In this document: one piece after another, positions 36,614-52,223 of the stretch | How the letters are laid out: the number at the start of each line of letters is the position of its first letter | Position numbering within the stretch: position 1 is the stretch's first letter | Source of the DNA: a bacterium | Lineage (GTDB): Bacteria > Bdellovibrionota > UBA1018 | DNA: 64,000 nucleotides | NCBI GenBank assembly: GCA_019751945.1 | Contig: JAIEMT010000003.1 | Coordinates: 34,993 to 98,992 of the forward strand | Direction: 5' to 3' | Position numbers and translations under genes: made by a program | Notes under the pieces: generated by a model | What the model was told of the DNA's origin: nothing | Databases searched by the model: none | The model's input: only the letters and a program-made list of their open reading frames with translations

Positions 36614-36688
36614 TGGGGTGTCGACAAGCGGTAAGTCACTGGATTTTGATTCCAGTATTCCTAGGTTCGAATCCTAGCACCCCAGCCA
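36614..36688 (+). tRNA. tRNA-Gln (anticodon TTG)
   Basis: Manual fold: acceptor TGGGGTG/CACCCCA with U1:A72; D-arm GACA-AGCGGTA-AGTC; anticodon stem CTGGA/TCCAG with loop TTTTGAT; T-arm CTAGG-TTCGAAT-CCTAG; discriminator G; CCA encoded. Confidence 0.85.
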
Positions 36689-37259
36689 ACTTTTCATCTC
36701 CTCTTATTTTTATTAGAGTTTTTTCAGGACTTACATTTTTGCGATCAATTGCGATCACCTCAGCCTCCCACTTTCGGTCGGAGACTTTTGTCAGCGCGCT
36801 TGCTTGGCGTTTTGCATACACATACGCTGACTGTGCCGATGAATTGCCAAGAAGCTGCTTTGCAACTTCGAGGTCAGAGGTTTCGTTATAGAGATTTCGA
36901 GTCCCTCCATGCCTCAAAACATGAGTGCCTGTATACGGCAGTCCCGCACTTCTGAAGGCTTGGTCATAGGCGTATTGAATCTGCCTATACTCAAAATGTC
37001 TTCCTCCTGATTCAAAGATCAGTCCTTTGGCTCCTGAAACATGCAAAGCCTCTAAGGCACGGTAGGTCTGTGGAAACATCGGATGTTCCTTAATCCCTTT
37101 ATTGGAATAGGAATTTTTGAAACCTGATTTTACCGCAGACAAGAGCCCCTTCTTTCTGGGCCATGAGACATATCGCACAACTTTGAGTCGAGACCTCTTA
37201 GGGTCGGACTGCAACAAAGTGTCCCGCTTTTTTGTTAACCGGACTTTTGACGCGATCAT
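36636..37259 (-). pseudogene. int: tyrosine recombinase (phage integrase) C-terminal catalytic fragment, separated from its N-terminal part by an IS insertion
   Basis: HVLRHGGTR (HxxR) box and downstream Tyr region; 3' end overlaps the tRNA-Gln 3' end; the first about 13 codons are IS-derived. Confidence 0.7.
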
Positions 37260-37297
37260 TTAAAGGATGATTTAATCTTTTAAACCGCGTCAAAGGA

Positions 37298-37639
37298 GTG
37301 AAGCGAATGGACCAACAAAATCAGAATACCCCACGTAAAAAGTTATCGCCAGACCAGAAGTTTAAAGTCATCAAAGAGCAAATGACGACGAAGACTTCGA
37401 TAAGCGATATTTGCAAAAAGTACGACATTGTTCCGTCGCAGTTTTACAAGTGGCAGGAGAAGTTTCTGAGTGGAGCTTTGGAGGGTTTCAAAAAATCTGA
37501 TGATGGCCCCACCAAGGCAGAACTTCGTAAAATTGATGAGCAGGAAAAAAGAATTCAGAAAATGCAGTCTGCAATCACCGAAATTATCCAGGAAAATATT
37601 GAGTTAAAAAAAAATCTTGGGGCTTCGGGACTTTTGTAG
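37298..37639 (+). CDS. IS3-family transposase OrfA (HTH)
   Basis: Matches IS3/IS911 OrfA pattern (KFKVIKEQMTTKTSISDICKKYDIVPSQFYKWQEKF, leucine-zipper tail); likely ATG at 37307 after GGAG. Confidence 0.8.
   Translation: MKRMDQQNQNTPRKKLSPDQKFKVIKEQMTTKTSISDICKKYDIVPSQFYKWQEKFLSGALEGFKKSDDGPTKAELRKIDEQEKRIQKMQSAITEIIQENIELKKNLGASGLL
37606..37614 (+). other. A9 slippery run, candidate programmed -1 frameshift site for OrfAB fusion
   Basis: A-run at the end of orfA where the orfB frame overlaps; typical of the IS3 family. Confidence 0.5.
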
Positions 37640-37668
37640 AAGTTCCCCCGGCAATCAGACCGCAAATC

Positions 37669-38604
37669 GTGGCTGATGTTGTTTTGCAACAGGATAGGTG
37701 TGAGCTGCAGCTTGAAGATTTGCTGCTTTGGTATGGGGTTAAAAAATCCACGTTTTATGACTGGCAAAAAGAGCCCACGATGGATGCAGAAAAGCCCCCG
37801 TTTGTAAGCGCCGCCTCGGTTCGTCCCGATGAGATTGCAGCAGTGCTGGCATATCGGGATCTTTACCCAGACATCGGGTACCGCAAGTTCACCTGGCAGA
37901 TGGTGGATGCGAACGTAGCGTTTTTATCGGAAAGCAAGGTCTACGATATTTTATCTGCCCACAATCGGCTTCAGGGATGGAACAAAGTCGACAACGGCGA
38001 AACTGGAAAAGAATATCGTCACAAACCCAGGTACGTTCACTATCACTGGCACACGGATATTGCGTACATCAAAGTGGGTGGAATCTTTTATTTTTTGATT
38101 ATGATGTTGGATGGCTACTCCCGGTATCTGCTGGATTGGGAGCTGATGACGGACATGCTTGGCGGGTCAGTTGAAAATTTTGTTCAACGTGTGAAAGAAA
38201 AATATCCACATGCACGGCCACGGCTGATCAACGACAATGGATCTCAGTTTATCAGTCACGATTTTAAACGACTTTTGCAAAAACTGGAAATCCAACAAAT
38301 ATTTACGCGCAGAAACCACCCGCAAACCAACGGGAAGATCGAACGAATGAATGGCACCGTCAAACAAGAAGCGCTTCGTCCCGGTCAACCTTGCGACTTT
38401 AGCGAGGCGTGGGAAATCTTGAACAAGTACAGTTACGAATACAATCACCAACGGCTGCATGCTGGGATCAATTTTTTGCGACCAGCGGATATGTTTTTTG
38501 GGCGTGGTGGGCAGGTGCTCAACGAACGTCGGGAAAAAATCGAAAATGCCCGCGCCGATCGAAAATCGCTCAACCGCGAGGAACGAATGAAAAATCTCCA
38601 CTAA
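37669..38604 (+). CDS. IS3-family transposase OrfB (DDE integrase core)
   Basis: HTDIAY...LIMMLDGYSR...NDNGSQFIS...HPQTNGKIER rve-domain motifs with D, D, E. Confidence 0.8.
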   Translation: MADVVLQQDRCELQLEDLLLWYGVKKSTFYDWQKEPTMDAEKPPFVSAASVRPDEIAAVLAYRDLYPDIGYRKFTWQMVDANVAFLSESKVYDILSAHNRLQGWNKVDNGETGKEYRHKPRYVHYHWHTDIAYIKVGGIFYFLIMMLDGYSRYLLDWELMTDMLGGSVENFVQRVKEKYPHARPRLINDNGSQFISHDFKRLLQKLEIQQIFTRRNHPQTNGKIERMNGTVKQEALRPGQPCDFSEAWEILNKYSYEYNHQRLHAGINFLRPADMFFGRGGQVLNERREKIENARADRKSLNREERMKNLH

Positions 38605-38636
38605 ATTTTTGCGTCAAAAGTCCGGATAGAAAAAAG

Positions 38637-41630: not shown

Positions 41631-42587
41631 TCATGCAGGCCTCCTTTCGGAGGCTCTTAGACCAAGAAAACGATTAATACGTTTTTTCCAAATCTTATTA
41701 AGATCTATATCTAATTTGCCAATGTAAGGAGCAATCGTCTTCGAAAAGTTACTACTAGAGTTGAATTCCTTTTTCGCAGGAGCAAAACCTATTTCAGCAG
41801 ATCTTTTTAAAAAATGCTGAACTACATGTGAACTCTTCAAACTCTTAAGCTGTACCTGCGACACCTGTTGAAATCTCAACCGCTCAAAAGGACTAATTGT
41901 CTGTAGCTTGTCGACTTCAGACAATGTCTTGATTGGTATTTTTTTTCCGTGAAGCTCAATTTCAATTCTAACCGCGTCAATATGACCGAAATCTGCTGGA
42001 CTATTCTTTGGAATGCAGTCGACGTCCTCTATTGGGACGCCACTTTTTTCGTACAATCTAACTAGGAAGGGCCGGCTTCCCATATAGAGGGTGCGTCCCC
42101 CGTCGCTTGACCACCGCTCGAAAGTTCTACATCCTGGCAAACTAATGCTCTGTGAAATTGTCGGATACGGAATGGCAAGGTTGACGCACAAATCTAATCG
42201 ATCGATCCTACCCTGTTCGATAATTTGACTGGAGAGGGAACCGAAGAGATCGGCGCTCCATTGTTTGAATTGGGAAATCGTCGAGAATTGGGACATGTGA
42301 AACTGGAGTAGACCTGGTGGTAGTGTTCCTCTCCTCGGCTCGAAACTAAAAAATACGTGATGATCATCTAAGTATCCCTCCAAACCATGACCAAGAAGGA
42401 AAACCACGCTTCGATACCATAGTTTTAACTCCAACTCAGTAATGGAACCACCCAAGTCTTGAACAAAATCCCTCGTTTTTTTGATAGCCGTGTTCTCTCT
42501 AAATTTCTCTCTTAGAATATGCAGGTTTTTGAGCGAGCTAGGATGGCGAAAACCGGCAAGTCCAGTGGGTGTGGAGGCAAATCCCAC
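41631..42587 (-). CDS. rep: rolling-circle replication initiator, Rep_trans (pT181 RepC-like) family
   Basis: Collinear matches to RepC motifs: RIDRLDLCVNLAI (cf. FTRLDLAFDFED), TLYMGSRPFLVRLYEK (cf. KYFGVRDSNRFIRIYNK), HIDAVRIEIELHGK (cf. HLWRVEIELKRD); similar length (318 vs 314 aa). Confidence 0.6.
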   Translation of the reverse strand: MGFASTPTGLAGFRHPSSLKNLHILREKFRENTAIKKTRDFVQDLGGSITELELKLWYRSVVFLLGHGLEGYLDDHHVFFSFEPRRGTLPPGLLQFHMSQFSTISQFKQWSADLFGSLSSQIIEQGRIDRLDLCVNLAIPYPTISQSISLPGCRTFERWSSDGGRTLYMGSRPFLVRLYEKSGVPIEDVDCIPKNSPADFGHIDAVRIEIELHGKKIPIKTLSEVDKLQTISPFERLRFQQVSQVQLKSLKSSHVVQHFLKRSAEIGFAPAKKEFNSSSNFSKTIAPYIGKLDIDLNKIWKKRINRFLGLRASERRPA

Positions 42588-42591
42588 TCCG

Positions 42592-45276
42592 CTATTGATA
42601 CTCCCTTGAAAGATAACCTAAGAAATTATCGACAGTACGATAAAAAACTAACGGCAAACCCGATGAGTTTAGGAGAAGCTTGGGGTATTGCCCTGCCAAA
42701 GAAGTGAAAGATCCACCGGAAGTGTTCTGATCGAGGTATTCGGCAGTCCAAGCTGCCTCTGTGACTAGCCGAGATTGTAAGGCGAGGCCCTGGAAGGCAG
42801 CTGAATAGTGAGAGATGTAGATTCTTCCTGAAGAGGTCACCTGAATACTCGGTGAAGTCACAATGTTTGAAGACGTTCCGGATGCTGCAACCACTTCTCC
42901 CGTAAATGCACCGGATCCTTGAGAAACACACCCAGCCACAGGTCCAGAGCATCCAACATACCTTATTTGTCCTGCGGTCATATCAAAGTGAGCAATGTGG
43001 GGAGAGTCGCTTGAGTCTAAGACCATTGAAATTCCCTCTCCTCGGGTGTTTCCTGAACTATCTAAAGATAAACAAGTCCATGAATAAGTAGACGATGTTA
43101 ACGCCTCGCTCGCGTAAGCTAGTTTAAGTGCACCATCCGACTGGTATACGATTACTGGTCGTCCAGTCGAAGTTAAAGCAAGGGTGGCATACTTCCCTGC
43201 ATCATTAGCTACGTTCCCGCAGGAACCTGTTCCTGTCATTCCATCGACGCTAAACCTCTTCCATCCCCCGCCGGGAGAAAAACGCGAAAACTTTAAACCA
43301 GTAGCACTGGCATCATAGTAGGCGACCCCTAAAGAAGTGCCTGACGAAGCGACCGAAGGGTATTGCCCTACATTGGCACTCGTGTCATCGACGACGGTGA
43401 CGGAAAATCCGGACTCATCATTCACTGATCTAGCTACATGAAGAGCCTGCGAAGCCGCTAGTCCGTTATAAAATGCGATAACTGGAGAATTATTAGAGTC
43501 ATAGGCTAAGCTCGGATAAGAACCAACGAACTGACCTGCTACACTCTCTGCCATGTTTACCACTGAAATTTGAGAAAAGGTTGGACTCCCAGCCGAGCCC
43601 CCCCTGACACCGTAATAAAGCTTCATATCGCCTGCAGTAGAGTCTTGAAAAAAGTATGTGTATCCTACTGTCCCCGAATTTGATTTTGCTGCCGCAAAAA
43701 CAGGTAAAGCTGTAGTGGGAAATAAGGATACTAAATTGTCGACATAGTCGAGTACAAAAGAACCAGCTGCGCCTCCGTTGGTAATGTCTGCCGCGATGCC
43801 AGAAGAAAGAACAATGTCATTTCCTGTTGCTCCTGCTCCTGCTGCTGGTAGTTGAGCGAAGGAACCATAAAGGGCATCAGAATTAAAATCATAAACAGCC
43901 CCCACTCCCTCAGCGCCTACAGTGGTCGTGGCAATCGTGGTGCCAGTAGCAAGCCATGCGCCAGCCGGCCCCGTCGATTTGTTTGCCAAAATCGTTGTCG
44001 TGCTATCCAAATAAAAAATGAAGTTTAAATTAATTGATGAACTCGAAGAAGCTAGCCTGAAACCGTTTTGCCCTTCATTTGATGCTCCTACCGATAAAGG
44101 TGCTCCCCAGGATCCCGATGCTCCTGTTTGTGAGTTTCCACAAGTTTGCGGAGCAGTTGCGGTGTACAAAGTGTTCGCAGGCGTAGCAGTCGTGTATAAA
44201 CCCACGATGGGGCGCTGAGTTGCTGCATCAATAGTGATGTCCATCCGGGTCGCTGCATTGGTGGTTGTTGTTATTCCTGCGGAAAAGCAGCTGGTTGCAC
44301 CTGTGCACCCATTAGAGAGCGACAAGGGACTCCAGGTCGAGCAGCTCCCGTTCGCATTCAAAGCTGTGCATCGAATTAAATAGGGTTTACCCGACCCAGC
44401 CGCCGCATCTACCGATGGCGTAGCTAAGAGCAACATGCCGTTTGCTGGACACATCACCGCTCCAGCTTGCATTGCACCTTGGGTCAACCCAGTAATGGTA
44501 CCGGCCCCGGAAACGGAGGCCATTACATCAGAGACAGACCAACTACCGGATGTGCTTCTAAATGCGTACTTTATAAAACTGTTTCCCACTAAGGTCTGCG
44601 CATAAAAAGAAAAAGTAAGATGAGGACGATTAGAAGAATCGAAGTTCAGTGTAAGCCCTTTGATTGCATCCACAGTGGCAGTGTTGGCGGCATTTGTGGC
44701 GCCTGCCGTAGCTGACGAAGCAAATGGTACCGTGATAGTCCATTCCCCGCTGGTTGAGCGCTCGGCATATCTCACTTGTTTATTCCCGGATCCGTTGAGA
44801 CTCATGCCATAGACATAGGCAATTGAAGGTCGCCCATCTGTGGTAAATGCGAGGCGAATAATACTCGCAGTTCCAGCGGCAGCAGCATTAGGCGCTCCGA
44901 GACAATAACTTCCTGCTATGCCACACACCACTGTCCCATAGTTGGCGTCCACCAGTTCGATGTTCCATCGTCCAAAAGTATCCAAGTAAGCATATTTGAG
45001 ACCCCCAACTGCTGCGGTTCCCGAGAATGAAGAATTCTTATCGTAGTAGGACACCGCGGGCCGCAGAGAAATCGGGTCGAGAGCCATATCATTTACTCCA
45101 CCGGTAAATGAATTAAAACTAAGAGAAGGTCCCGCCGCTACAATTCGTCGAATATCACTAGTGCCCCCACTATTGGTGGTGTCAGGTACCCCACTTATCT
45201 CAGTCTCGCAACCCAGCAGGAAGAGAACTAGTAGGACCGTCATTCCTGAACGGAAATTATTTTTCTGACTCAACAT
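42592..45276 (-). CDS. large (about 894 aa) Thr/Ser/Gly/Ala-rich surface lipoprotein, probable beta-rich adhesin/fibre
   Basis: Lipobox LLGC after MLSQKNNFRSGMTVLLVLF; very low-complexity Gly/Ala/Ser/Thr composition with repeated S/T-G-S motifs; GAGGGG RBS; 4 nt upstream of rep. Confidence 0.55.
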   Translation of the reverse strand: MLSQKNNFRSGMTVLLVLFLLGCETEISGVPDTTNSGGTSDIRRIVAAGPSLSFNSFTGGVNDMALDPISLRPAVSYYDKNSSFSGTAAVGGLKYAYLDTFGRWNIELVDANYGTVVCGIAGSYCLGAPNAAAAGTASIIRLAFTTDGRPSIAYVYGMSLNGSGNKQVRYAERSTSGEWTITVPFASSATAGATNAANTATVDAIKGLTLNFDSSNRPHLTFSFYAQTLVGNSFIKYAFRSTSGSWSVSDVMASVSGAGTITGLTQGAMQAGAVMCPANGMLLLATPSVDAAAGSGKPYLIRCTALNANGSCSTWSPLSLSNGCTGATSCFSAGITTTTNAATRMDITIDAATQRPIVGLYTTATPANTLYTATAPQTCGNSQTGASGSWGAPLSVGASNEGQNGFRLASSSSSINLNFIFYLDSTTTILANKSTGPAGAWLATGTTIATTTVGAEGVGAVYDFNSDALYGSFAQLPAAGAGATGNDIVLSSGIAADITNGGAAGSFVLDYVDNLVSLFPTTALPVFAAAKSNSGTVGYTYFFQDSTAGDMKLYYGVRGGSAGSPTFSQISVVNMAESVAGQFVGSYPSLAYDSNNSPVIAFYNGLAASQALHVARSVNDESGFSVTVVDDTSANVGQYPSVASSGTSLGVAYYDASATGLKFSRFSPGGGWKRFSVDGMTGTGSCGNVANDAGKYATLALTSTGRPVIVYQSDGALKLAYASEALTSSTYSWTCLSLDSSGNTRGEGISMVLDSSDSPHIAHFDMTAGQIRYVGCSGPVAGCVSQGSGAFTGEVVAASGTSSNIVTSPSIQVTSSGRIYISHYSAAFQGLALQSRLVTEAAWTAEYLDQNTSGGSFTSLAGQYPKLLLNSSGLPLVFYRTVDNFLGYLSREYQ

Positions 45277-45286
45277 AGAATCCCCT

Positions 45287-46090
45287 CTAAAAATTAAAAC
45301 GCACCTCGAATGGAACCGAGATTGGCAAAATTCGTTCGGAGGCTGACTGGGTACCCCTGGAACCTGCACCGGAAAAAAACTTTTGTTCCCATGTCGCGTT
45401 TGCAGATACACCGACCTGAAGGACTTCAGTAATACTGTATGTAAGAGCTACTTCTGGTTCGATAAAATATCCGAAATTATAAAACCCCGTATTTTGGTTC
45501 TTCTCGTAGTGAGAAATTGGGAAGCCAAATGAAATGCGAAACTCAAAACGAAAGTCACTCTTAAGTGAATTTATGTACTCTGTGAGAAAAAGAAGCCTCG
45601 TACTGCTCAGAGAGCTCATGACCTCACTCGGTGACGTTGGGGGGGTTGACTGCTGAAGAAGCTCTGCGCCTAAACCGAGCGATAATTTATCCACCACGGA
45701 AGAGCCACTGTCGGACTGAAAAAGATACCCGCTTAACAAAAAGCGTACTTTGGTGACCTCCTGGTTTACGCTGGACGGAGAAAGGCCACTGACTTTTAAC
45801 GTTACAGCTGTTTTCAGAAAAGTGGCTCGAATATAAGTCCCTGATTCACTCAGACGTCGTCGCAGCTCAGCTCCATAGACAGCGCCCGAACCATTAGGTA
45901 CCGACAAGCTCAGGCCAGAGCTATTCAAAGAATAGTTTAGTAAGCTCATACCCCCGAAAACTCGCGCGATCCACTTAGAGTTTTCGCCTGACAGATTTAG
46001 GCTATCCATATTCACTTTTTGTGGATTCTCTGCCCATGCAACCGTTCCGAAAGCTAAAATTGCGACAAGGCTAGCGGCAATCGCTTTCAT
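45287..46090 (-). CDS. outer-membrane beta-barrel protein
   Basis: Signal peptide MKAIAASLVAILAFGTVAWA; alternating-hydrophobic strands; C-terminal ...VPFEVRFNF with terminal Phe. Confidence 0.5.
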   Translation of the reverse strand: MKAIAASLVAILAFGTVAWAENPQKVNMDSLNLSGENSKWIARVFGGMSLLNYSLNSSGLSLSVPNGSGAVYGAELRRRLSESGTYIRATFLKTAVTLKVSGLSPSSVNQEVTKVRFLLSGYLFQSDSGSSVVDKLSLGLGAELLQQSTPPTSPSEVMSSLSSTRLLFLTEYINSLKSDFRFEFRISFGFPISHYEKNQNTGFYNFGYFIEPEVALTYSITEVLQVGVSANATWEQKFFSGAGSRGTQSASERILPISVPFEVRFNF

Positions 46091-46710
46091 CGGGGAAGCT
46101 CCTGCTCTCTAAATCCTTCGAATAGATAATTCGGATTCTTGGTGGCAGAAGGGCTAGTCTGCAATGAAGGTGGTGGTCCGACTGCAACCGTATTGCTCAA
46201 AGCAGGTCCAAAAGGTGCAAAGGCAACGGTATTTTTCGCTAATCTTTCAGATCCAGGAAGCAATATTTGCCGCGATCTCTCACGGGGTGAGGAATCGCCA
46301 ACTGTAGCAATGTCTCTTTCAGGCTGTGGGGGAACTATTGCCTCGAACTGAGAAGTAGCAGTGTCTAAGAGCCGACGAATTCCGTTTTTGACTTCTTCAA
46401 TTGTAGAAACTTTTAAAACGTACCGAAGCCTCTTTTTTGACAAACCCATTTCCTGGAGCTCTGGAATTCGAAGCTTTGTACCTAACGACACCACATCAGG
46501 ACTAGTAAGTCTATTTTTGTTTGCATCATAAATCTCACGCCAAAGTTGATGCGTTCCAAAAATACGATACGAAAAAGTTGCCAGTGTTTCGCCCGAAAGG
46601 ATGGTCTCCTCACGTACGGTGTCGGCGGAGTATCCAAGTTCTAAAAAAAAGAAAAAAGCAAACATTACCCAAATACAAATACGCATCCATTTACCGATCA
46701 TTAGGGGCAC
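46087..46710 (-). CDS. LysM domain-containing secreted protein
   Basis: TVREETILSGETLATFSYRIFGTHQLWREIYDANKNRLTSPDVVSLGTKLRIPEL is a canonical LysM; N-terminal TM/signal; Pro-rich C-terminus. Confidence 0.65.
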   Translation of the reverse strand: MPLMIGKWMRICIWVMFAFFFFLELGYSADTVREETILSGETLATFSYRIFGTHQLWREIYDANKNRLTSPDVVSLGTKLRIPELQEMGLSKKRLRYVLKVSTIEEVKNGIRRLLDTATSQFEAIVPPQPERDIATVGDSSPRERSRQILLPGSERLAKNTVAFAPFGPALSNTVAVGPPPSLQTSPSATKNPNYLFEGFREQELPR

Positions 46711-48169
46711 CTCCTAATGATCCAGCAAGCTTGCGTTTTAGTGAGTTCAGTTTTCTCGATGTCGATAACTCTAGGTGCGTTGGAACCTTGGCTCGTTCTA
46801 AAATGCTGATAGCCTCGTTAACTTTTCCAGTTTTTTCCATTAATAGTGCCAGGTTGACGCTCGCCTTAGGTCCAAACTCGGCATGATTCACTATTTTTCG
46901 GTATCTCGCTTCTGCTTCTTCATTTGCACCGGCAGATTCTAGAGTTAGAGCCAAATTAAAAGAGATAACAGGGTTCTCAGGATATCTTTTCTCAGCACCA
47001 AGGAGAATTTCAGCCGATTCTTTATATTTTTTCTGTTGATAAAATGTAATCGCTTTAAGGACAGCCACCTCGGGGTCAGTCTCTTCACTGGTTCTTATTT
47101 TCTTAATTTTATCGTAGGCCTGTTCGGGCAGATTGAAAGACAAGTAAAGTTTTGCCAATGCAATTGAGGCCCAGGACTGGTCCGGAGCCCTCTCATTATA
47201 AACAGCAACTAAGGAACCCGCTGCCTCCAGCTTTTTTTGGCTGATATAAAGATCAAATAGCAATCGGGTCGCCTGGTCAGAGGCAGGTTCTATTTTCAAC
47301 ACCTCTCGCAATGAATCTTCGGCTTTGTCGGGTTGCTTCAACTGAAGGTAAATCTCTGCTAAGCGCAAGCGCGGACTAGTTATCAAAGGTTCCAGTTCAA
47401 CAATTTTCGTTCCAACAGTTTGCGCTTCGCCTAAGCGTCCCAATGCCACCAATGCTTCCATCTTCCCATTCCAACCAGCCAAATTGGAGGGGTGGCTCGT
47501 CACGATACGTTCGAAAATGCGAAGACTTTCTTTTGCCTGATGGGTTTTAAGGTAAATATTTCCCAGACTTTCAAGTGCGGCTAAATTGTTGGGATCAGAT
47601 AAAAGCACTCGTAAGTAATCACTAATGGCGAATGTGGTCTTGCCCAACGCCTCGGCATTCCTAGCCGCTAAAAGGATTAAGTCTAAACTCTTACCTTTCT
47701 GTTTGCGTGAAGCCAAGAGTTCTTCAAGTTCAATATGTCTTGATAAACTGAAGAGGAGCTCGGCCCGTAGGATAAGAGCCTCTGGGTAGTCCCCCCGCAA
47801 CTTTTCAGCACGGCTTACTTCGACAAGAGCATCTTCCGATTTTCCGAAAGCCTTTAGACACTTGGCTTTAAGAAACCGTGCCTCTGCCCTAAACGGATTC
47901 TGATCTTCCAATAACTCATTGACCATAGCCAGAGCTTGATCTGGGTTGCCTACCGCTAATAGTACGCGAACCTGGCCTGTAATCGCTTCTTCCCGATACT
48001 CGCTTCTCTGAGCGAGCCGACGGTAAATTGAAAGAGCTGTGCGGAAATCATTGGAGCGTTCGGCGCTCTTAGCCAAAGAAATGTAATCAACGACGTCGAT
48101 ACCCTGCGCCCTTGGCTCTCCAATAAAAATTAAGCTAAATAAGCAAAGGACCCTAATGCAGTTCCCCAT
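46691..48169 (-). CDS. tetratricopeptide-repeat (TPR) protein, secreted
   Basis: Signal peptide then more than 10 consecutive TPR-like 34-aa helical repeats (A/L/Y-rich, W-LG-Y pattern). Confidence 0.7.
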   Translation of the reverse strand: MGNCIRVLCLFSLIFIGEPRAQGIDVVDYISLAKSAERSNDFRTALSIYRRLAQRSEYREEAITGQVRVLLAVGNPDQALAMVNELLEDQNPFRAEARFLKAKCLKAFGKSEDALVEVSRAEKLRGDYPEALILRAELLFSLSRHIELEELLASRKQKGKSLDLILLAARNAEALGKTTFAISDYLRVLLSDPNNLAALESLGNIYLKTHQAKESLRIFERIVTSHPSNLAGWNGKMEALVALGRLGEAQTVGTKIVELEPLITSPRLRLAEIYLQLKQPDKAEDSLREVLKIEPASDQATRLLFDLYISQKKLEAAGSLVAVYNERAPDQSWASIALAKLYLSFNLPEQAYDKIKKIRTSEETDPEVAVLKAITFYQQKKYKESAEILLGAEKRYPENPVISFNLALTLESAGANEEAEARYRKIVNHAEFGPKASVNLALLMEKTGKVNEAISILERAKVPTHLELSTSRKLNSLKRKLAGSLGGAPNDR

Positions 48170-48265
48170 GCATTAGTTATCGGGATCTTTTGTAAAGTAT
48201 TAAAAAAAAAAAGAAGGCAATCTTTTGACTGTGATGGAGCCGGCCCCAGGGCCGTGAAATGAGTT

Positions 48266-49303
48266 CTAATTTGTAGAAACCATCATACTCGTTACGCAAC
48301 GAGTATAAATTTGGGACGGGATATACGGACTAGTTCCAACGCGAGTTAAGGCGCCCGAGGCATAAGTAAACTTTTCAATGGTATTCGAGGTACTCAACGC
48401 ATTCGCGACATAGACATTGCCGGATGACGAATCAAGAGCCATAGCGGAGGGACCATTGATGATGGTCGAGTCCGAAAATGCAACTGCGGTATTAGAGATC
48501 GCGTTAGTCGTCGGATTGATGTCGTAAGAGTAAACATAATTTGATCCTGCAGTCGTGCTTCCATAGGCAACCAGTATTTTTCCGCTCGTATGCATCATGA
48601 TCCCAGTGGGCAGAGCCGTAGTACTAGGAGCCGTTTGCGAGGAGAGACAATCAGCAGACACGCTGTATCCGGTGGCTGCAATGACACCAAATTTGTTGTT
48701 CGGAGTTGCTGCCGCGTGGGCGTAGAGAATCTTTCCATTTGAGAGCGTGGTCATGCTGGAGATTAATGTGGTCGAGGTGGCACAGGAACCTGCCGGTGCG
48801 CTAACAAAAGGATTGGCCCCAGAGGTGATGCGAGATTTGTTAGAAGAAAATTTCTCAAGAGCCGTACCTTTGCTAACCAATAAACCTCCATCCGGCGACA
48901 TAAATATGCCTCGAAGCTGTGCGCTCATGGCCGTACTATTCACCAAATAGGTCGTTACCGTGTTGTAATAGGTCTTATCTACAAGATCAATTCTGCGACC
49001 ACTTGCGTTTTCAACCAAAACCAAAATTTGAGATGAGCTATAGTTGACCATGCCCACTGGCGAGTCGGATGGAGAAAATGAGTTGTAATCTACCAGTAGA
49101 GTATCATAGGCCCCCGTGGCCAAATCAAACTTAGTAATCGTGTTAGAGGCAGTGCTCACGGCGACGCCTCCACCGTAACAGGTCCCGCTTGCGACGTAGA
49201 GGAATGGGCCACTGGTTCCGGAAGGGGTGAGTACGTCCAAATTACCGCAGCTAAAGGCGACAGAACTAAGAGTCAAAACCAAAAAAAATCTTGACCTGGG
49301 CAT
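48266..49303 (-). CDS. lipoprotein, Ser/Thr-rich, probable beta-propeller-like repeats
   Basis: Lipobox AFSCG after MPRSRFFLVLTLSSV; repeated hydrophobic-strand/S-T-G segments; first gene of the five-gene minus-strand operon; the ORF-track start at 49321 is probably too far upstream. Confidence 0.45.
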   Translation of the reverse strand: MPRSRFFLVLTLSSVAFSCGNLDVLTPSGTSGPFLYVASGTCYGGGVAVSTASNTITKFDLATGAYDTLLVDYNSFSPSDSPVGMVNYSSSQILVLVENASGRRIDLVDKTYYNTVTTYLVNSTAMSAQLRGIFMSPDGGLLVSKGTALEKFSSNKSRITSGANPFVSAPAGSCATSTTLISSMTTLSNGKILYAHAAATPNNKFGVIAATGYSVSADCLSSQTAPSTTALPTGIMMHTSGKILVAYGSTTAGSNYVYSYDINPTTNAISNTAVAFSDSTIINGPSAMALDSSSGNVYVANALSTSNTIEKFTYASGALTRVGTSPYIPSQIYTRCVTSMMVSTN

Positions 49304-49492
49304 TTTACTTCCTCCGCGCATTTCGATACCACCAATATTATATCGTAATTATTTAGTTAATAGTTAAGGGCGGAATACGACATAGGGCGTTATATCTCTC
49401 ATAACAGCTTGTTAAATATTCTAAATGTAATAAATTGTTAACCTTTTGTTTTTTGTCAACTCACAAGTTCGTTCTGCCGAACGGTAATAGTA

Positions 49493-50098
49493 ATGAGGTG
49501 TCTTCAAACTCTCCCGTTATTGGTGTCCGCTGTTCTCGTGACGCTGTGTCCCGTTATGGGTTTTGCATTTACCAAAGAGCGGGCTGCGGCCATCGTGATG
49601 GGCGGAGCAACTTTTTACGGCGGAGGAACAACTGGTAGTTTAGCGGGAACGACAGGTTTTTCGTTTAGCCTGCAGGCGCAGCCCAAAAAAGGACTTCTCC
49701 GCCCCACTTTAGGAATATTTGGCGAAGCCGCTTCTGGCGTAGCTCCAATCTCTGGCACTCAGACTTCCTACAGCCTCTATGGAGGGGGATTCGCAGTTGG
49801 CGTGCAAATTTCTCCCTTCGCAGAAGGAAACATTACTCCTTACATTTCTGCAGACGGAATTTTGGGATGGAACTTACTCAAACTCGGAAGCAGTTCGACG
49901 ACGACCAATAACACGAATTCCCTGATGTATGGCTACGTCATTGGAGCAGGCGCAGATATTCGGTTAGCGCGAACCAAAGGAAATGCGATTCGATTGCAAA
50001 CTGGTTACCTTTACAAAGTTGGCAGATTAGCCGGGATTAATAGTTTTGCGATCCAGGGATTTGTCGTTTCCATCGGGTACTGCTTCTCGCCTCAATGA
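49493..50098 (+). CDS. small outer-membrane beta-barrel protein (OmpW/OmpA-N-like)
   Basis: Signal peptide; Gly/Thr-rich amphipathic strands; C-terminal ...SIGYCFSPQ; divergent from the island operon across an AT-rich promoter region. Confidence 0.5.
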   Translation: MRCLQTLPLLVSAVLVTLCPVMGFAFTKERAAAIVMGGATFYGGGTTGSLAGTTGFSFSLQAQPKKGLLRPTLGIFGEAASGVAPISGTQTSYSLYGGGFAVGVQISPFAEGNITPYISADGILGWNLLKLGSSSTTTNNTNSLMYGYVIGAGADIRLARTKGNAIRLQTGYLYKVGRLAGINSFAIQGFVVSIGYCFSPQ

Positions 50099-50505: not shown

Positions 50506-50805
50506 TCACGCGGCTCTTATTTTGACGTGCTTGGCGAGAATCTCATTGATGAGCGATTGATAGCCCGTGCGCTTCTCTTTGGCCTCACGGCGAATACCCT
50601 TAAGTGTTTCCTGGTCAATTCTCACGGCGATAAGTTTTCGCGGCGCGCTCCCAAGTAGGGGGCGACCCAAGCGCTTCATTGCATCAAGCTGCTTCCCGGA
50701 TAGTTCCGGAATGTCCGAAAAATCGATCTTACGATCGAGGATAGACTTTGCGCTCTTTTTTGCTGGCACACCGCGAGCTGATGATGCGGAATTTTTCTTT
50801 GCCAT
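50506..50805 (-). CDS. brnA: BrnA antitoxin (RHH/CopG-like) of type II BrnT/BrnA toxin-antitoxin system
   Basis: IDFSDIPELS...GRP...KLIAVRIDQETLKGIRREAKEKRTGYQSLINEIL matches the BrnA consensus. Confidence 0.65.
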   Translation of the reverse strand: MAKKNSASSARGVPAKKSAKSILDRKIDFSDIPELSGKQLDAMKRLGRPLLGSAPRKLIAVRIDQETLKGIRREAKEKRTGYQSLINEILAKHVKIRAA

Positions 50806-50977
50806 CTTTGCTTCTCCTCACTGTAAAAATAAAAGTCAGAATTCGACCTCGCTCTGACTTCGCGATTGCAACATACCGGTCTTCTGATTTTGAGTGAGAG
50901 CAGCTCATCGTCTCTTCAAAGCTCACGCCATGCTTTTCAAGGTTCCTGGCTGCTTTACGACTTTCCCGCTCAAACAC
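50729..50977 (-). CDS. brnT: BrnT toxin (DUF497 ribonuclease)
   Basis: ARNLEKHGVSFEE...HSKSEDRYVAIA...RILTFIFTVRR...FRIISSRCASKKERKVY matches the BrnT consensus; 82 aa. Confidence 0.65.
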   Translation of the reverse strand: MFERESRKAARNLEKHGVSFEETMSCSHSKSEDRYVAIAKSERGRILTFIFTVRRSKDGKEKFRIISSRCASKKERKVYPRS

Positions 50978-51834: not shown

Positions 51835-52203
51835 GCGTTGCCCACTCGTATCGTTACAGTCTGAAGGTCTTCCAAGGATTTTGAGATCAAATCTTTATCC
51901 GACGACTTTTTATCAAGCGGAGTTCCTTACTTCTGAAAGGGGATGTTGCTCCTTCAAGGGCTTCGTCACAAATTTTCTTCACTGCTATTTCCTGACATTT
52001 CGCGAGTTGTCCTATTTTGCTGAAAATTTAAAAAAACCCCACGAAATAGGCGTTGTTTAACGCAGGTGCTTGTCCTACAATAGGACAAAACGGGCAGTAA
52101 GTAATGGATTTTATTCAGTCCCAATCAAACCAGCCATTTAAAAAAGATTAAACTCCCTCAAAATAAAAAATCTCCGACAAACCAATCGACTATTCGAAGC
52201 ACG

Positions 52204-52223
52204 CTGGGGTGCTAGGATTCGAA
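52204..52223 (-). repeat. exact 20-bp inverted copy of the tRNA-Gln 3' end (TTCGAATCCTAGCACCCCAG)
   Basis: 52204-52223 is the reverse complement of 36666-36685; candidate att remnant or island boundary; pairs 13/14 with 52360-52373. Confidence 0.7.

Follow-up and report, generated by a model that had tools for sequence, protein, structure and literature searches.

A conserved module of TPR, LysM, putative β-barrel and double-propeller lipoprotein genes in Bdellovibrionota

Four adjacent genes, called here B, C, D and E, are a real unit: a conserved and undescribed outer-membrane module of predatory-type Bdellovibrionota. All coordinates (Table 1) are positions in the window, the whole stretch of 64,000 nt that was analysed, which belongs to contig JAIEMT010000003.1 (Bdellovibrionota, UBA1018). 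The original prediction described a tightly packed operon of five exported envelope proteins, A to E, and the ORF list does contain the five minus-strand ORFs. Export is supported by the sequences as read by eye: lipoboxes are present in A and E and signal-peptide-like N-termini in B, C and D. The spacing of 4-20 nt that had been described holds for B/C (an overlap of 20 nt with the GTG start of C, or 11 nt with the ATG), for C/D (an overlap of 4 nt) and for D/E (a gap of 10 nt, AGGGGA preceding the ATG of E), but not for A/B, where the gap is 96 nt. The start of C is more likely the ATG at 46701 than the GTG at 46710; AGGAGG stands 8 nt before this ATG, and gene callers choose it. The genes are indeed co-oriented, translationally coupled envelope genes that match no named system, and neither D nor E has a significant Pfam, NCBIfam or PDB-sequence match. 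The unit of five genes has to be reduced, however: in the loci whose E is close (42-71% identical), no homologue of A stands nearby.

Table 1. Features of the cluster and its surroundings (positions in the window)
Feature	Position	Strand	Description and basis
tRNA-Gln	36614-36688
F	41631-42587	-	extra ORF, absent from the list of the original prediction; begins 4 nt after the stop of E
E	42592-45276	-	894 aa counted from ATG; ORF extends to GTG at 45411
E, C-terminal propeller	42598-43818	-	residues ~487-893; 29 strands in AF2 DSSP string
E, N-terminal propeller	43849-45162	-	residues ~39-476; 27 strands in AF2 DSSP string
D	45287-46090	-	267 aa; putative small outer-membrane β-barrel; signal peptide ...AWA/E, C-terminal ...VRFNF
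C, GTG start	46087-46710	-	207 aa; start in ORF list
C, ATG start	46087-46701	-	204 aa; exported LysM protein, Pro-rich tail
C, LysM domain	46459-46608	-	residues 35-86; NCBIfam and PDB matches
B	46691-48169	-	492 aa; exported all-TPR protein; TPR_19 and many other TPR models
A-B spacer	48170-48265	-	96 nt; sequence
A	48266-49321	-	351 aa; putative lipoprotein, lipobox VAFSC by eye; sub-threshold NHL, lactonase and Kelch matches
Divergent A/G intergenic region	49322-49492	.	AT-rich, GC 0.316
G	49493-50098	+	201 aa; putative small exported β-rich, OMP-like protein; weak OMP_b-brl_2 match only
Inverted 21-nt copy of tRNA 3' end	52203-52223

Orthologues in other genomes were checked for synteny as opposed to scatter, and the outcome was divided: B-C-D-E are syntenic or fused, A is not. 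The order B-C-D-E is kept in three other lineages (L024, L016 and L009, where E is 71%, 63% and 42% identical), B-D-E in L022 and D-E in L006, L011, L012, L020 and L026. A D homologue is located immediately upstream of E in all of these loci and in L030, and D-E adjacency extends to at least six lineages beyond the three with the complete order. A HMMER search with the D profile returned about ten proteins of 508-885 aa that carry the D barrel C-terminally; TPR is N-terminal in every one of the ten, and in six LysM lies between TPR and barrel. The TPR part, which is the separate ORF B in the window, is fused N-terminally to the barrel protein in P0054, P0060, P0067, P0070, P0117 and P0147; the loci with D-E only have none inside 10 kb. 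TPR, LysM and a D-type barrel form a single polypeptide of 825-885 aa in L027, L028 and L029. The E homologue starts 1-2 nt after this fusion in L027 and L028 (44% and 43% identity; for L027 the hhalign probability is 100, E=2e-204), and in L029, a Bacteriovoracia MAG by its NCBI name, a divergent E-family lipoprotein follows it directly. The arrangement in L030 is a TPR protein divergent from a D-type barrel and then a divergent E-family gene; the C-terminal end of this TPR protein is LysM-like by eye, and Pfam gives TPR only.

Many loci contain D-E with neither B nor C inside 10 kb, thus the TPR and LysM arms are either dispensable or encoded elsewhere. In a rough neighbour-joining tree of E the loci linked to TPR/LysM are basal and those with D-E only form a derived clade. 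The protein preceding E is an unrelated one of 243 aa in L005, L013 and L018 and one of 390 aa in L025, and in L007 E has a G-type neighbour only. Every relative originates from a metagenome or a MAG, and those that bear a lineage name all belong to Bdellovibrionota.

The cluster had also been placed on a mobile island, and one would argue that adjacent envelope genes on such an island are horizontally acquired surface decoration without a joint function. The cluster does lie between tRNA-Gln and the inverted copy of its 3' end, it is adjoined by an integrase fragment, IS3, IS256 and a Rep_trans-like ORF, and its GC content (0.472) is slightly under that of the flanks (0.50-0.51). However, the block of mobile genes ends exactly at the stop codon of E, and in the relatives the module occupies varied loci with few mobile-element genes nearby, as judged from precomputed Pfam lists (L030 has one resolvase-family gene about 2 kb downstream of the module). 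Therefore the location on an island is not established, and the module may merely abut it. Moreover, the same four parts are found together in at least eight independent loci and in four gene architectures, fusions included. The fusion and synteny data largely refute the absence of a joint function, which we regard as very improbable.

The assignments of B and C to TPR and LysM proteins were upheld. B matches TPR_19 with E=4.9e-32; its matches to PrsT, PgaA, BcsC, PilW and GltE are generic and far below cut-off, and that to PF24575 TPR_Slam is likewise weak and generic (E=8.5e-4, 20 bits versus a cut-off of 35 bits). The LysM domain of C is recognised by NCBIfam NF008399 (E=1.9e-7) and by the Kbp LysM in PDB (E=4.6e-7), with Pfam PF01476 below its cut-off (E=0.044); the LysM segment of the fused homologues P0067 and P0070 is above the Pfam cut-off (48.3 and 50.8 bits versus 20.9).

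D retains the C-terminal Phe that had been pointed out, and its putative barrel region comprises about 210-230 residues. The D profile, searched exhaustively with HMMER, gave 174 representatives at E<=1e-3, and PF13505 OMP_b-brl was found sub-threshold in two of the six D members (E=0.04 for D, 4.8e-5 for the best member). The AlphaFold2 model is all-β with about 10-12 long strands, a count that is approximate at a pLDDT of 54.5 and three sequences. The listed Foldseek matches of this model are nearly all β-barrel membrane proteins; none is significant (best E=0.028), and the weak ones include NanC, OpcA and FapF-type barrels of 10-12 strands.

The description of E as a Ser/Gly/Thr-rich lipoprotein agrees with its composition (Ser, Ala, Gly and Thr make up 47% combined) and with the lipobox LLGC ending at Cys23, read by eye. 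The picture of a giant low-complexity fibre does not agree with the AlphaFold2 model, which is globular and consists of two 7-bladed β-propellers, nor with the entropy in 30-residue windows (mean 3.44 bits, minimum 2.88) and the full-length identity of 42-71% across relatives. Blades 74-220 of the N-terminal propeller align to blades 650-761 of the C-terminal one. The latter contains a repeated motif, YPSLAYDS..P.IAFY, which is invariant in alignment A1, and it is to the C-terminal half that the distant relatives L017 and L030 are similar. The conservation of about 12 Cys is consistent with an extracytoplasmic protein, and the linker after the lipobox Cys differs in length among relatives, with a long Thr/Ala repeat in L022. 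Structure comparison finds the closest folds in Photorhabdus and Burkholderia lectins and in glycan-active propellers (also PL42 and GH145-type), and the surface protein PorZ (structure 5m11) is among them as well; at the sequence level E shows no membership in these lectin or glycan-active families. Its identity to the seven-bladed propeller lectins PLL, PHL and BP39L (PDB 5c9o, 5mxg, 6gxr) is only 9-19%, and these are soluble single propellers, whereas E is a lipid-anchored double propeller. Four E homologues bear the automatic JGI name "trimeric autotransporter adhesin". This candidate identity was rejected on the double-propeller model, the N-terminal lipobox and YadA-type Pfam domains in 0 of 17 members; the database label of several E homologues is wrong and is corrected here.

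Gene linkage, fusions, folds and the LysM and TPR identities are direct results of the analysis, and from them we infer a physical complex of B, C and D with E. Our preferred reading, to which we assign a probability of about 0.5, is a peptidoglycan-anchored outer-membrane complex of B, C and D that positions E, a glycan-binding and possibly glycan-processing lipoprotein, at the outer membrane. B, C and D would be one outer-membrane protein split into three translationally coupled genes: D would be a small barrel of about 10-12 strands in the outer membrane, C and B its periplasmic arms, the former binding peptidoglycan and the latter serving as a platform for protein docking. The TPR and LysM parts probably face the periplasm, since they are N-terminal to the barrel in the fusions and LysM binds peptidoglycan. 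E would be the conserved partner of B/C/D, and its two 7-bladed propellers, with lectins and glycan-active propellers as nearest folds, suggest that it binds glycan. The many loci with D-E and without B/C, as well as the other proteins found upstream of E in some, speak against an anchored complex.

Known tethers offer partial parallels. OmpM/SlpA-type SLH-barrel tethers have an N-terminal peptidoglycan-binding domain and a C-terminal barrel, and OmpA has the reverse arrangement. Like these, the fused relatives of the module join a cell-wall-binding module and an outer-membrane barrel in one polypeptide, thus a link from the outer membrane to peptidoglycan is implied. Unlike in these, LysM takes the place of SLH or OmpA_C as the wall binder, there is a long TPR array in addition, and the barrel is small and has a conserved lipoprotein partner gene. 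In T9SS, PorE is a peptidoglycan-binding lipoprotein with TPR and propeller, and PorQ-PorZ is a barrel that anchors a double-propeller surface protein. The module differs from both, as there is no sequence relationship, there are no T9SS genes and no C-terminal sorting domain, E is lipid-anchored, and the organism is outside Bacteroidota.

The main rival to the anchored complex is a surface display analogous to Slam, a tentative reading that we consider unlikely. Slam consists of a periplasmic TPR domain and a β-barrel, encoded adjacent to a lipoprotein gene (PMC5449769), and in type XI secretion TPR and a DUF560 barrel stand beside the surface-lipoprotein cargo (PMC5449769, PMC8406197). By analogy, the TPR arm would take the E precursor in the periplasm and the D barrel would move E across the outer membrane or keep it there, so that the double-propeller lectin would reach the cell surface, e.g., for recognition of prey or substrate glycans. 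As in Slam, a lipoprotein gene is immediately adjacent, and in the fused relatives a TPR is N-terminal to the putative barrel (a separate ORF in the window); the secreted lectins and PorZ among the closest folds of E and its variable post-lipobox linker also favour display. However, DUF560 was not found in six D members (Pfam to E=10) or in ten fusions (to E=1e-3), the D barrel of about 225 residues appears smaller than the 14 strands of Slam, and LysM is inserted between TPR and barrel. The candidate cargo is a double 7-bladed propeller and not a TbpB-like handle and barrel, and its model lacks the TbpB-like 8-stranded barrel domain. Many D-E loci have no TPR gene nearby, whereas TPR is present in every Slam homologue (PMC5449769), and the taxon is Bdellovibrionota, not Proteobacteria. 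The conserved Cys of E may indicate disulfide folding in the periplasm, which would be ill-suited to threading via a small barrel. Membership in the Slam family itself was rejected, with D not a DUF560 barrel and E without a TbpB-like domain. A bolder proposal, quite unlikely in our estimation, is a DUF560-independent counterpart of Slam, in which a TPR-LysM-barrel translocon or anchor (split in three here) would expose a double-propeller lectin at the cell surface of Bdellovibrionota, and this lectin would recognise prey or substrate glycans. If true, this would be a new way in which lipoproteins become exposed on the surface and would add a new candidate factor for prey recognition.

Another function that the folds bring to mind is glycan uptake, after the model of NanC and the propeller mutarotase NanM. 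D would be a small specific channel comparable to the 12-strand KdgM/NanC porins, and E a glycan-binding or glycan-cleaving propeller that feeds D or acts on its substrate; we judge this improbable. To the same doubtful degree, the LysM protein would bind GlcNAc-containing polymers, e.g., peptidoglycan or chitin fragments. Such a pair fits the size of D and the weak matches of its model, the resemblance of E to lectins, PL42 and GH145-type propellers, and the nature of LysM, which is a GlcNAc-polymer binding module. That some lineages have another protein in the position before E would agree with a modular pairing of channel and binder if the replacements are also barrels. On the other hand, none of the loci has linked genes for sugar catabolism, transporters or regulators, a catalytic motif was not identified, every structural match of D is non-significant, and substrate-specific porins do not typically carry a large fused TPR domain.

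The likeness to curli, Tad and two-partner secretion that had been suggested was not borne out: A-E and G gave no CsgG/CsgA, Tad/Flp or TpsB (POTRA and 16-strand barrel) matches in Pfam and NCBIfam. Synthase-dependent exopolysaccharide export (PgaA, BcsC, AlgK/AlgE, PelB) also couples TPR to an outer-membrane barrel, and B weakly matches the TPR regions of PgaA and BcsC; the putative D barrel, however, is much smaller than the 16-18 strands of those systems. B was rejected as an export protein of the PgaA/BcsC type, since its 50-59 bits are far under the cut-offs of 367 and 858. The operon contains no gene for a synthase or a glycosyltransferase, either in the window or in the relatives.

Positioning of lipoproteins at or across the outer membrane is known for few systems only, e.g., Slam/T11SS and the Bacteroidota export signal, and the envelope biology of Bdellovibrionota is mostly uncharted. 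The module defined here has four conserved parts, is clearly backed by gene fusions and comes with a definite structural hypothesis; its D and E represent two protein families without annotation. Two testable questions follow: is a lectin-like lipoprotein anchored, or exported, by a small barrel that has TPR and LysM arms, and how important is the module for predation or envelope integrity?

A and G are accessories that vary by strain or lineage. The claim that A is a propeller lipoprotein stands in part: the lipobox is present, and the propeller, which is probable, has the sub-threshold matches behind it. A is a strain-specific add-on outside the conserved module. Its lone trace elsewhere is in L029, where a lipoprotein of 315 aa encoded downstream of the divergent E relative resembles A weakly and collinearly (25% over 87 aa, pairwise E=1e-5) and matches a Mala_s_1-like propeller (E=6.9e-6). 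A canonical terminator is lacking in the A-B spacer, and RNA structure there is not significant (folding z-score -0.22); the spacer is partly similar to an equally long spacer (96 nt) upstream of B in L024 and possibly carries a promoter and ribosome-binding site of B's own. The region between A and G is AT-rich, as had been noted, and a σ70-consensus site was not found there; a promoter in it is a candidate by inference only. G is a recurrent neighbour of the module: L024 has two paralogues (40% and 24% identity) on the strand of B and directly upstream of it, and L007 and L008 have a G homologue oriented divergently from E (jackhmmer E=2e-83 after iteration).

Our analysis shows that the genes of the TPR protein B, the LysM protein C, the small barrel D and the 894-aa lipoprotein E form one genetic unit, and the decisive result is provided by gene fusions. 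In word-indexed searches D alone retrieved only D itself and a six-sequence D alignment only three proteins. We ran the D profile by exhaustive HMMER over 1.84 billion representatives at a threshold of E<=1e-3 and obtained 174 proteins, mostly of 240-300 aa; about ten of them are 508-885 aa long and carry the D barrel at the C-terminus. According to Pfam, all ten long proteins harbor N-terminal TPR arrays and six have LysM between the TPR and the barrel, as exemplified by protein P0060 (TPR 29-373, LysM 481-529, barrel 618-825). In loci L027 and L028 a homologue of E starts 1-2 nt after the fused gene (identity 44% and 43%, respectively), and the former is matched by hhalign with a probability of 100 and E=2e-204. 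In L029, a Bacteriovoracia MAG by its NCBI name, the gene after the fusion encodes a divergent lipoprotein of the E family, which the gene caller truncated. In locus L030 the genes of a TPR protein and a D-type barrel are divergently oriented, and behind the barrel gene lies a divergent member of the E family; by eye, the C-terminus of the TPR protein looks like LysM, where Pfam gave only TPR. Therefore, B, C and D correspond to one polypeptide elsewhere, and E is their conserved partner across four gene architectures. The fused protein P0070 of L028 has two tandem LysM matches instead of one.

Four contigs from the same population carry the cluster of the window unchanged. Among independent loci, the complete B-C-D-E set is present in L024, L016 and L009 (E identical by 71%, 63% and 42%), a TPR fragment with D and E in L022, and D-E only in L006, L011, L012, L020 and L026. 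Upstream of E there is an unrelated 243-aa exported protein (D2) in L005, L013 and L018, a 390-aa protein in L025 and, in L007, only a divergent small OMP of the type of G, the 201-aa exported β-rich protein next to A. In a rough neighbour-joining tree of E the TPR/LysM-linked loci are basal and the D-E-only loci constitute a derived clade. The original prediction united all five envelope genes in one operon; this holds for B-C-D-E by synteny and fusions, but not for the propeller-like lipoprotein A: none of the loci with a close E contains a homologue of it.

The ORF list bears out five co-oriented genes (see the table). The junctions, supposed to be 4-20 nt throughout, are indeed tight between B/C and C/D, which overlap (C and D share 4 nt, ATGA), and between D and E, which are 10 nt apart, but A and B are separated by 96 nt. 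Neither a canonical terminator nor a significant RNA structure was found in this spacer, and a consensus scan of the AT-rich spacer upstream of A gave no σ70 promoter. C, D and E are each preceded by a Shine-Dalgarno-like site. For C the more likely start is the ATG at 46701, preceded by AGGAGG; the gene callers chose it, and it yields 204 aa. Reading of the sequences gives lipoboxes in A (VAFSC) and E (LLGC), signal peptides in B, C and D, and a C-terminal Phe in D.

Coordinates of the envelope genes, neighbouring elements and features of related loci (window positions unless a locus is named)
Feature	Position	Strand	Remarks
A, propeller-like lipoprotein	48266-49321	-	351 aa
B, TPR	46691-48169	-	492 aa
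C, LysM	46087-46710	-	207 aa
D, small barrel	45287-46090	-	267 aa
E, lipoprotein	42592-45276	-	894 aa counted from ATG
F	41631-42587	-	318 aa; weak Rep_trans (replication initiator) match, E=0.0029; begins 4 nt past E stop
G	49493-50098	+	201 aa
BrnT toxin / BrnA antitoxin	50506-50977	-	overlapping pair between G and TauE gene
tRNA-Gln	36614-36688		followed by mobile-gene block
Tyrosine integrase remnant and IS3-type element	36636-38635		remnant beside tRNA
IS3-type element	37669-38604		position is that of rve transposase; element flanked by 39-nt inverted repeats 37229-37267 and 38597-38635
Copy of tRNA-Gln 3' end	52203-52223		21 nt; inverted, not direct; 15.5 kb away, 0 expected by chance
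G-family, L024	5747-6966		two tandem copies upstream of B
G-family, L007	9272-9919		divergent from E
Long linker, L022	1267-1767		in E homologue
Split E homologue, L020	9824-12479		338 aa and 549 aa
Lipoprotein and barrel, L029	13231-14774		315 aa and 196 aa
Tandem LysM, L028	9240-9626		in P0070

Searches in Pfam, NCBIfam, PDB sequences and PDB profiles gave nothing significant for E or D. The word-indexed search revealed 17 relatives of E, nearly all full-length and 42-71% identical, all of them from metagenomes or MAGs. Among the seven genome-collection loci with an E relative, four have Bdellovibrionota, Bdellovibrionales or Pseudobdellovibrionaceae in the title, two have unspecific or other labels and one is a weak repeat-only match in a Gemmatimonadales MAG. 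For E, AlphaFold2 predicts from the alignment of 17 sequences (pLDDT 75.9) an all-β protein whose approximately 56 strands fall into two blocks. Foldseek ranks PLL and PHL highest, two Photorhabdus lectins with 7 blades (TM on the target 0.70-0.75), and comparison of the family profile with itself indicates that blades are homologous both within each half and between the halves. Therefore, E is a globular lipoprotein of tandem 7-bladed propellers and not the fibre that had been proposed; its richness in Ser, Ala, Gly and Thr is real, but the sequence is not low-complexity. About 12 cysteines are conserved in E. The fold neighbours suggest that E may bind glycan. The automatic JGI name 'trimeric autotransporter adhesin', borne by the homologues P0003, P0004, P0006 and P0011, is unsupported by domain scans and by the structure model. 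In the L022 homologue the lipobox Cys is connected to the first propeller by a long Thr/Ala dipeptide-repeat linker (…ATATATATATATATAT…), thus the tether length varies in the family. The L020 homologue occupies two overlapping ORFs, which reflects either pseudogenization by a frameshift or an error in the assembly.

The model of D, from a three-sequence alignment, has about 10-12 long strands at low confidence (pLDDT 54.5); the Foldseek matches listed are nearly all β-barrel membrane proteins, none of them significant. PF13505 OMP_b-brl is touched, at sub-threshold level, by two of six D-family members (best E 4.8e-5). B is all-TPR, its matches to named TPR families being generic and far under cut-offs, and C contains a LysM domain. 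The best reading, to which we assign a probability of about 0.5, is an outer-membrane scaffold anchored to peptidoglycan and holding a lipoprotein that binds glycan. D would be placed in the outer membrane; TPR and LysM would lie on the periplasmic side, because the fusions place both N-terminally of the barrel and LysM binds peptidoglycan; and the TPR would dock a partner, most simply E. One would argue that the genes encode a display system like Slam, in which TPR plus barrel is likewise encoded beside a lipoprotein gene (PMC5449769). However, D is not DUF560, E has no TbpB-like domain, TPR is missing from many loci, and the numerous cysteines of E speak against threading through a small barrel, so that we regard this main rival as doubtful. 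An uptake pair of a porin and a binder is still less probable. BAM-like (no POTRA) and Tol-Pal-like (no TolB or Pal homology) readings were rejected, as were EPS export, curli, Tad and TPS on Pfam/NCBIfam domain searches. The module, whose function is putative, resembles a known kind of system, an outer-membrane barrel with a periplasmic TPR arm and a lipoprotein partner; what is new is the two unannotated families, D and E, and the clear fusion signature. A literature search for a Bdellovibrio system of TPR, LysM, barrel and propeller lipoprotein found nothing relevant among the papers searched.

Small exported β-rich proteins of the G family accompany the module in three lineages with differing orientation: in the window G and A are transcribed divergently, and in L024, the closest relative, two same-strand paralogues occupy the slot upstream of B. 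D, D2 and G have no homology to one another detectable by hhalign, and the idea that A is a paralogue of the E propellers was rejected (hhalign probability 0.1). L029 has, downstream of its divergent E relative, a lipoprotein that matches A weakly and collinearly (E=1e-5) and gives a Mala_s_1-like propeller match (E=6.9e-6), followed after 5 nt by a barrel with an OMP_b-brl match of 30 bits, over the cut-off. This pair echoes A and G of the window, and such a second couple of small barrel and propeller lipoprotein may be a recurring accessory.

In the relatives the module is located in diverse contexts with few mobile-element genes nearby, judging by precomputed Pfam lists. Therefore, carriage on a mobile island, as originally predicted, is possible in the window but does not characterize the module as such. 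We consider it very improbable that the genes are chance island cargo. The GC content of the module (0.472) is slightly under that of the flanks. After the tRNA-Gln come a C-terminal integrase fragment, an IS3-type element, an IS256 transposase and the Rep_trans-like ORF F. Since no other locus has F downstream of E, this ORF marks the border of the mobile block; it could be reached by read-through from the operon. All that is left of the integrase is its catalytic C-terminal part, and the IS3-type element appears to have truncated it. A degraded integrative element could have left the inverted copy of the tRNA-Gln 3' end (TTCGAATCCTAGCACCCCAGC) as a rearranged att site.
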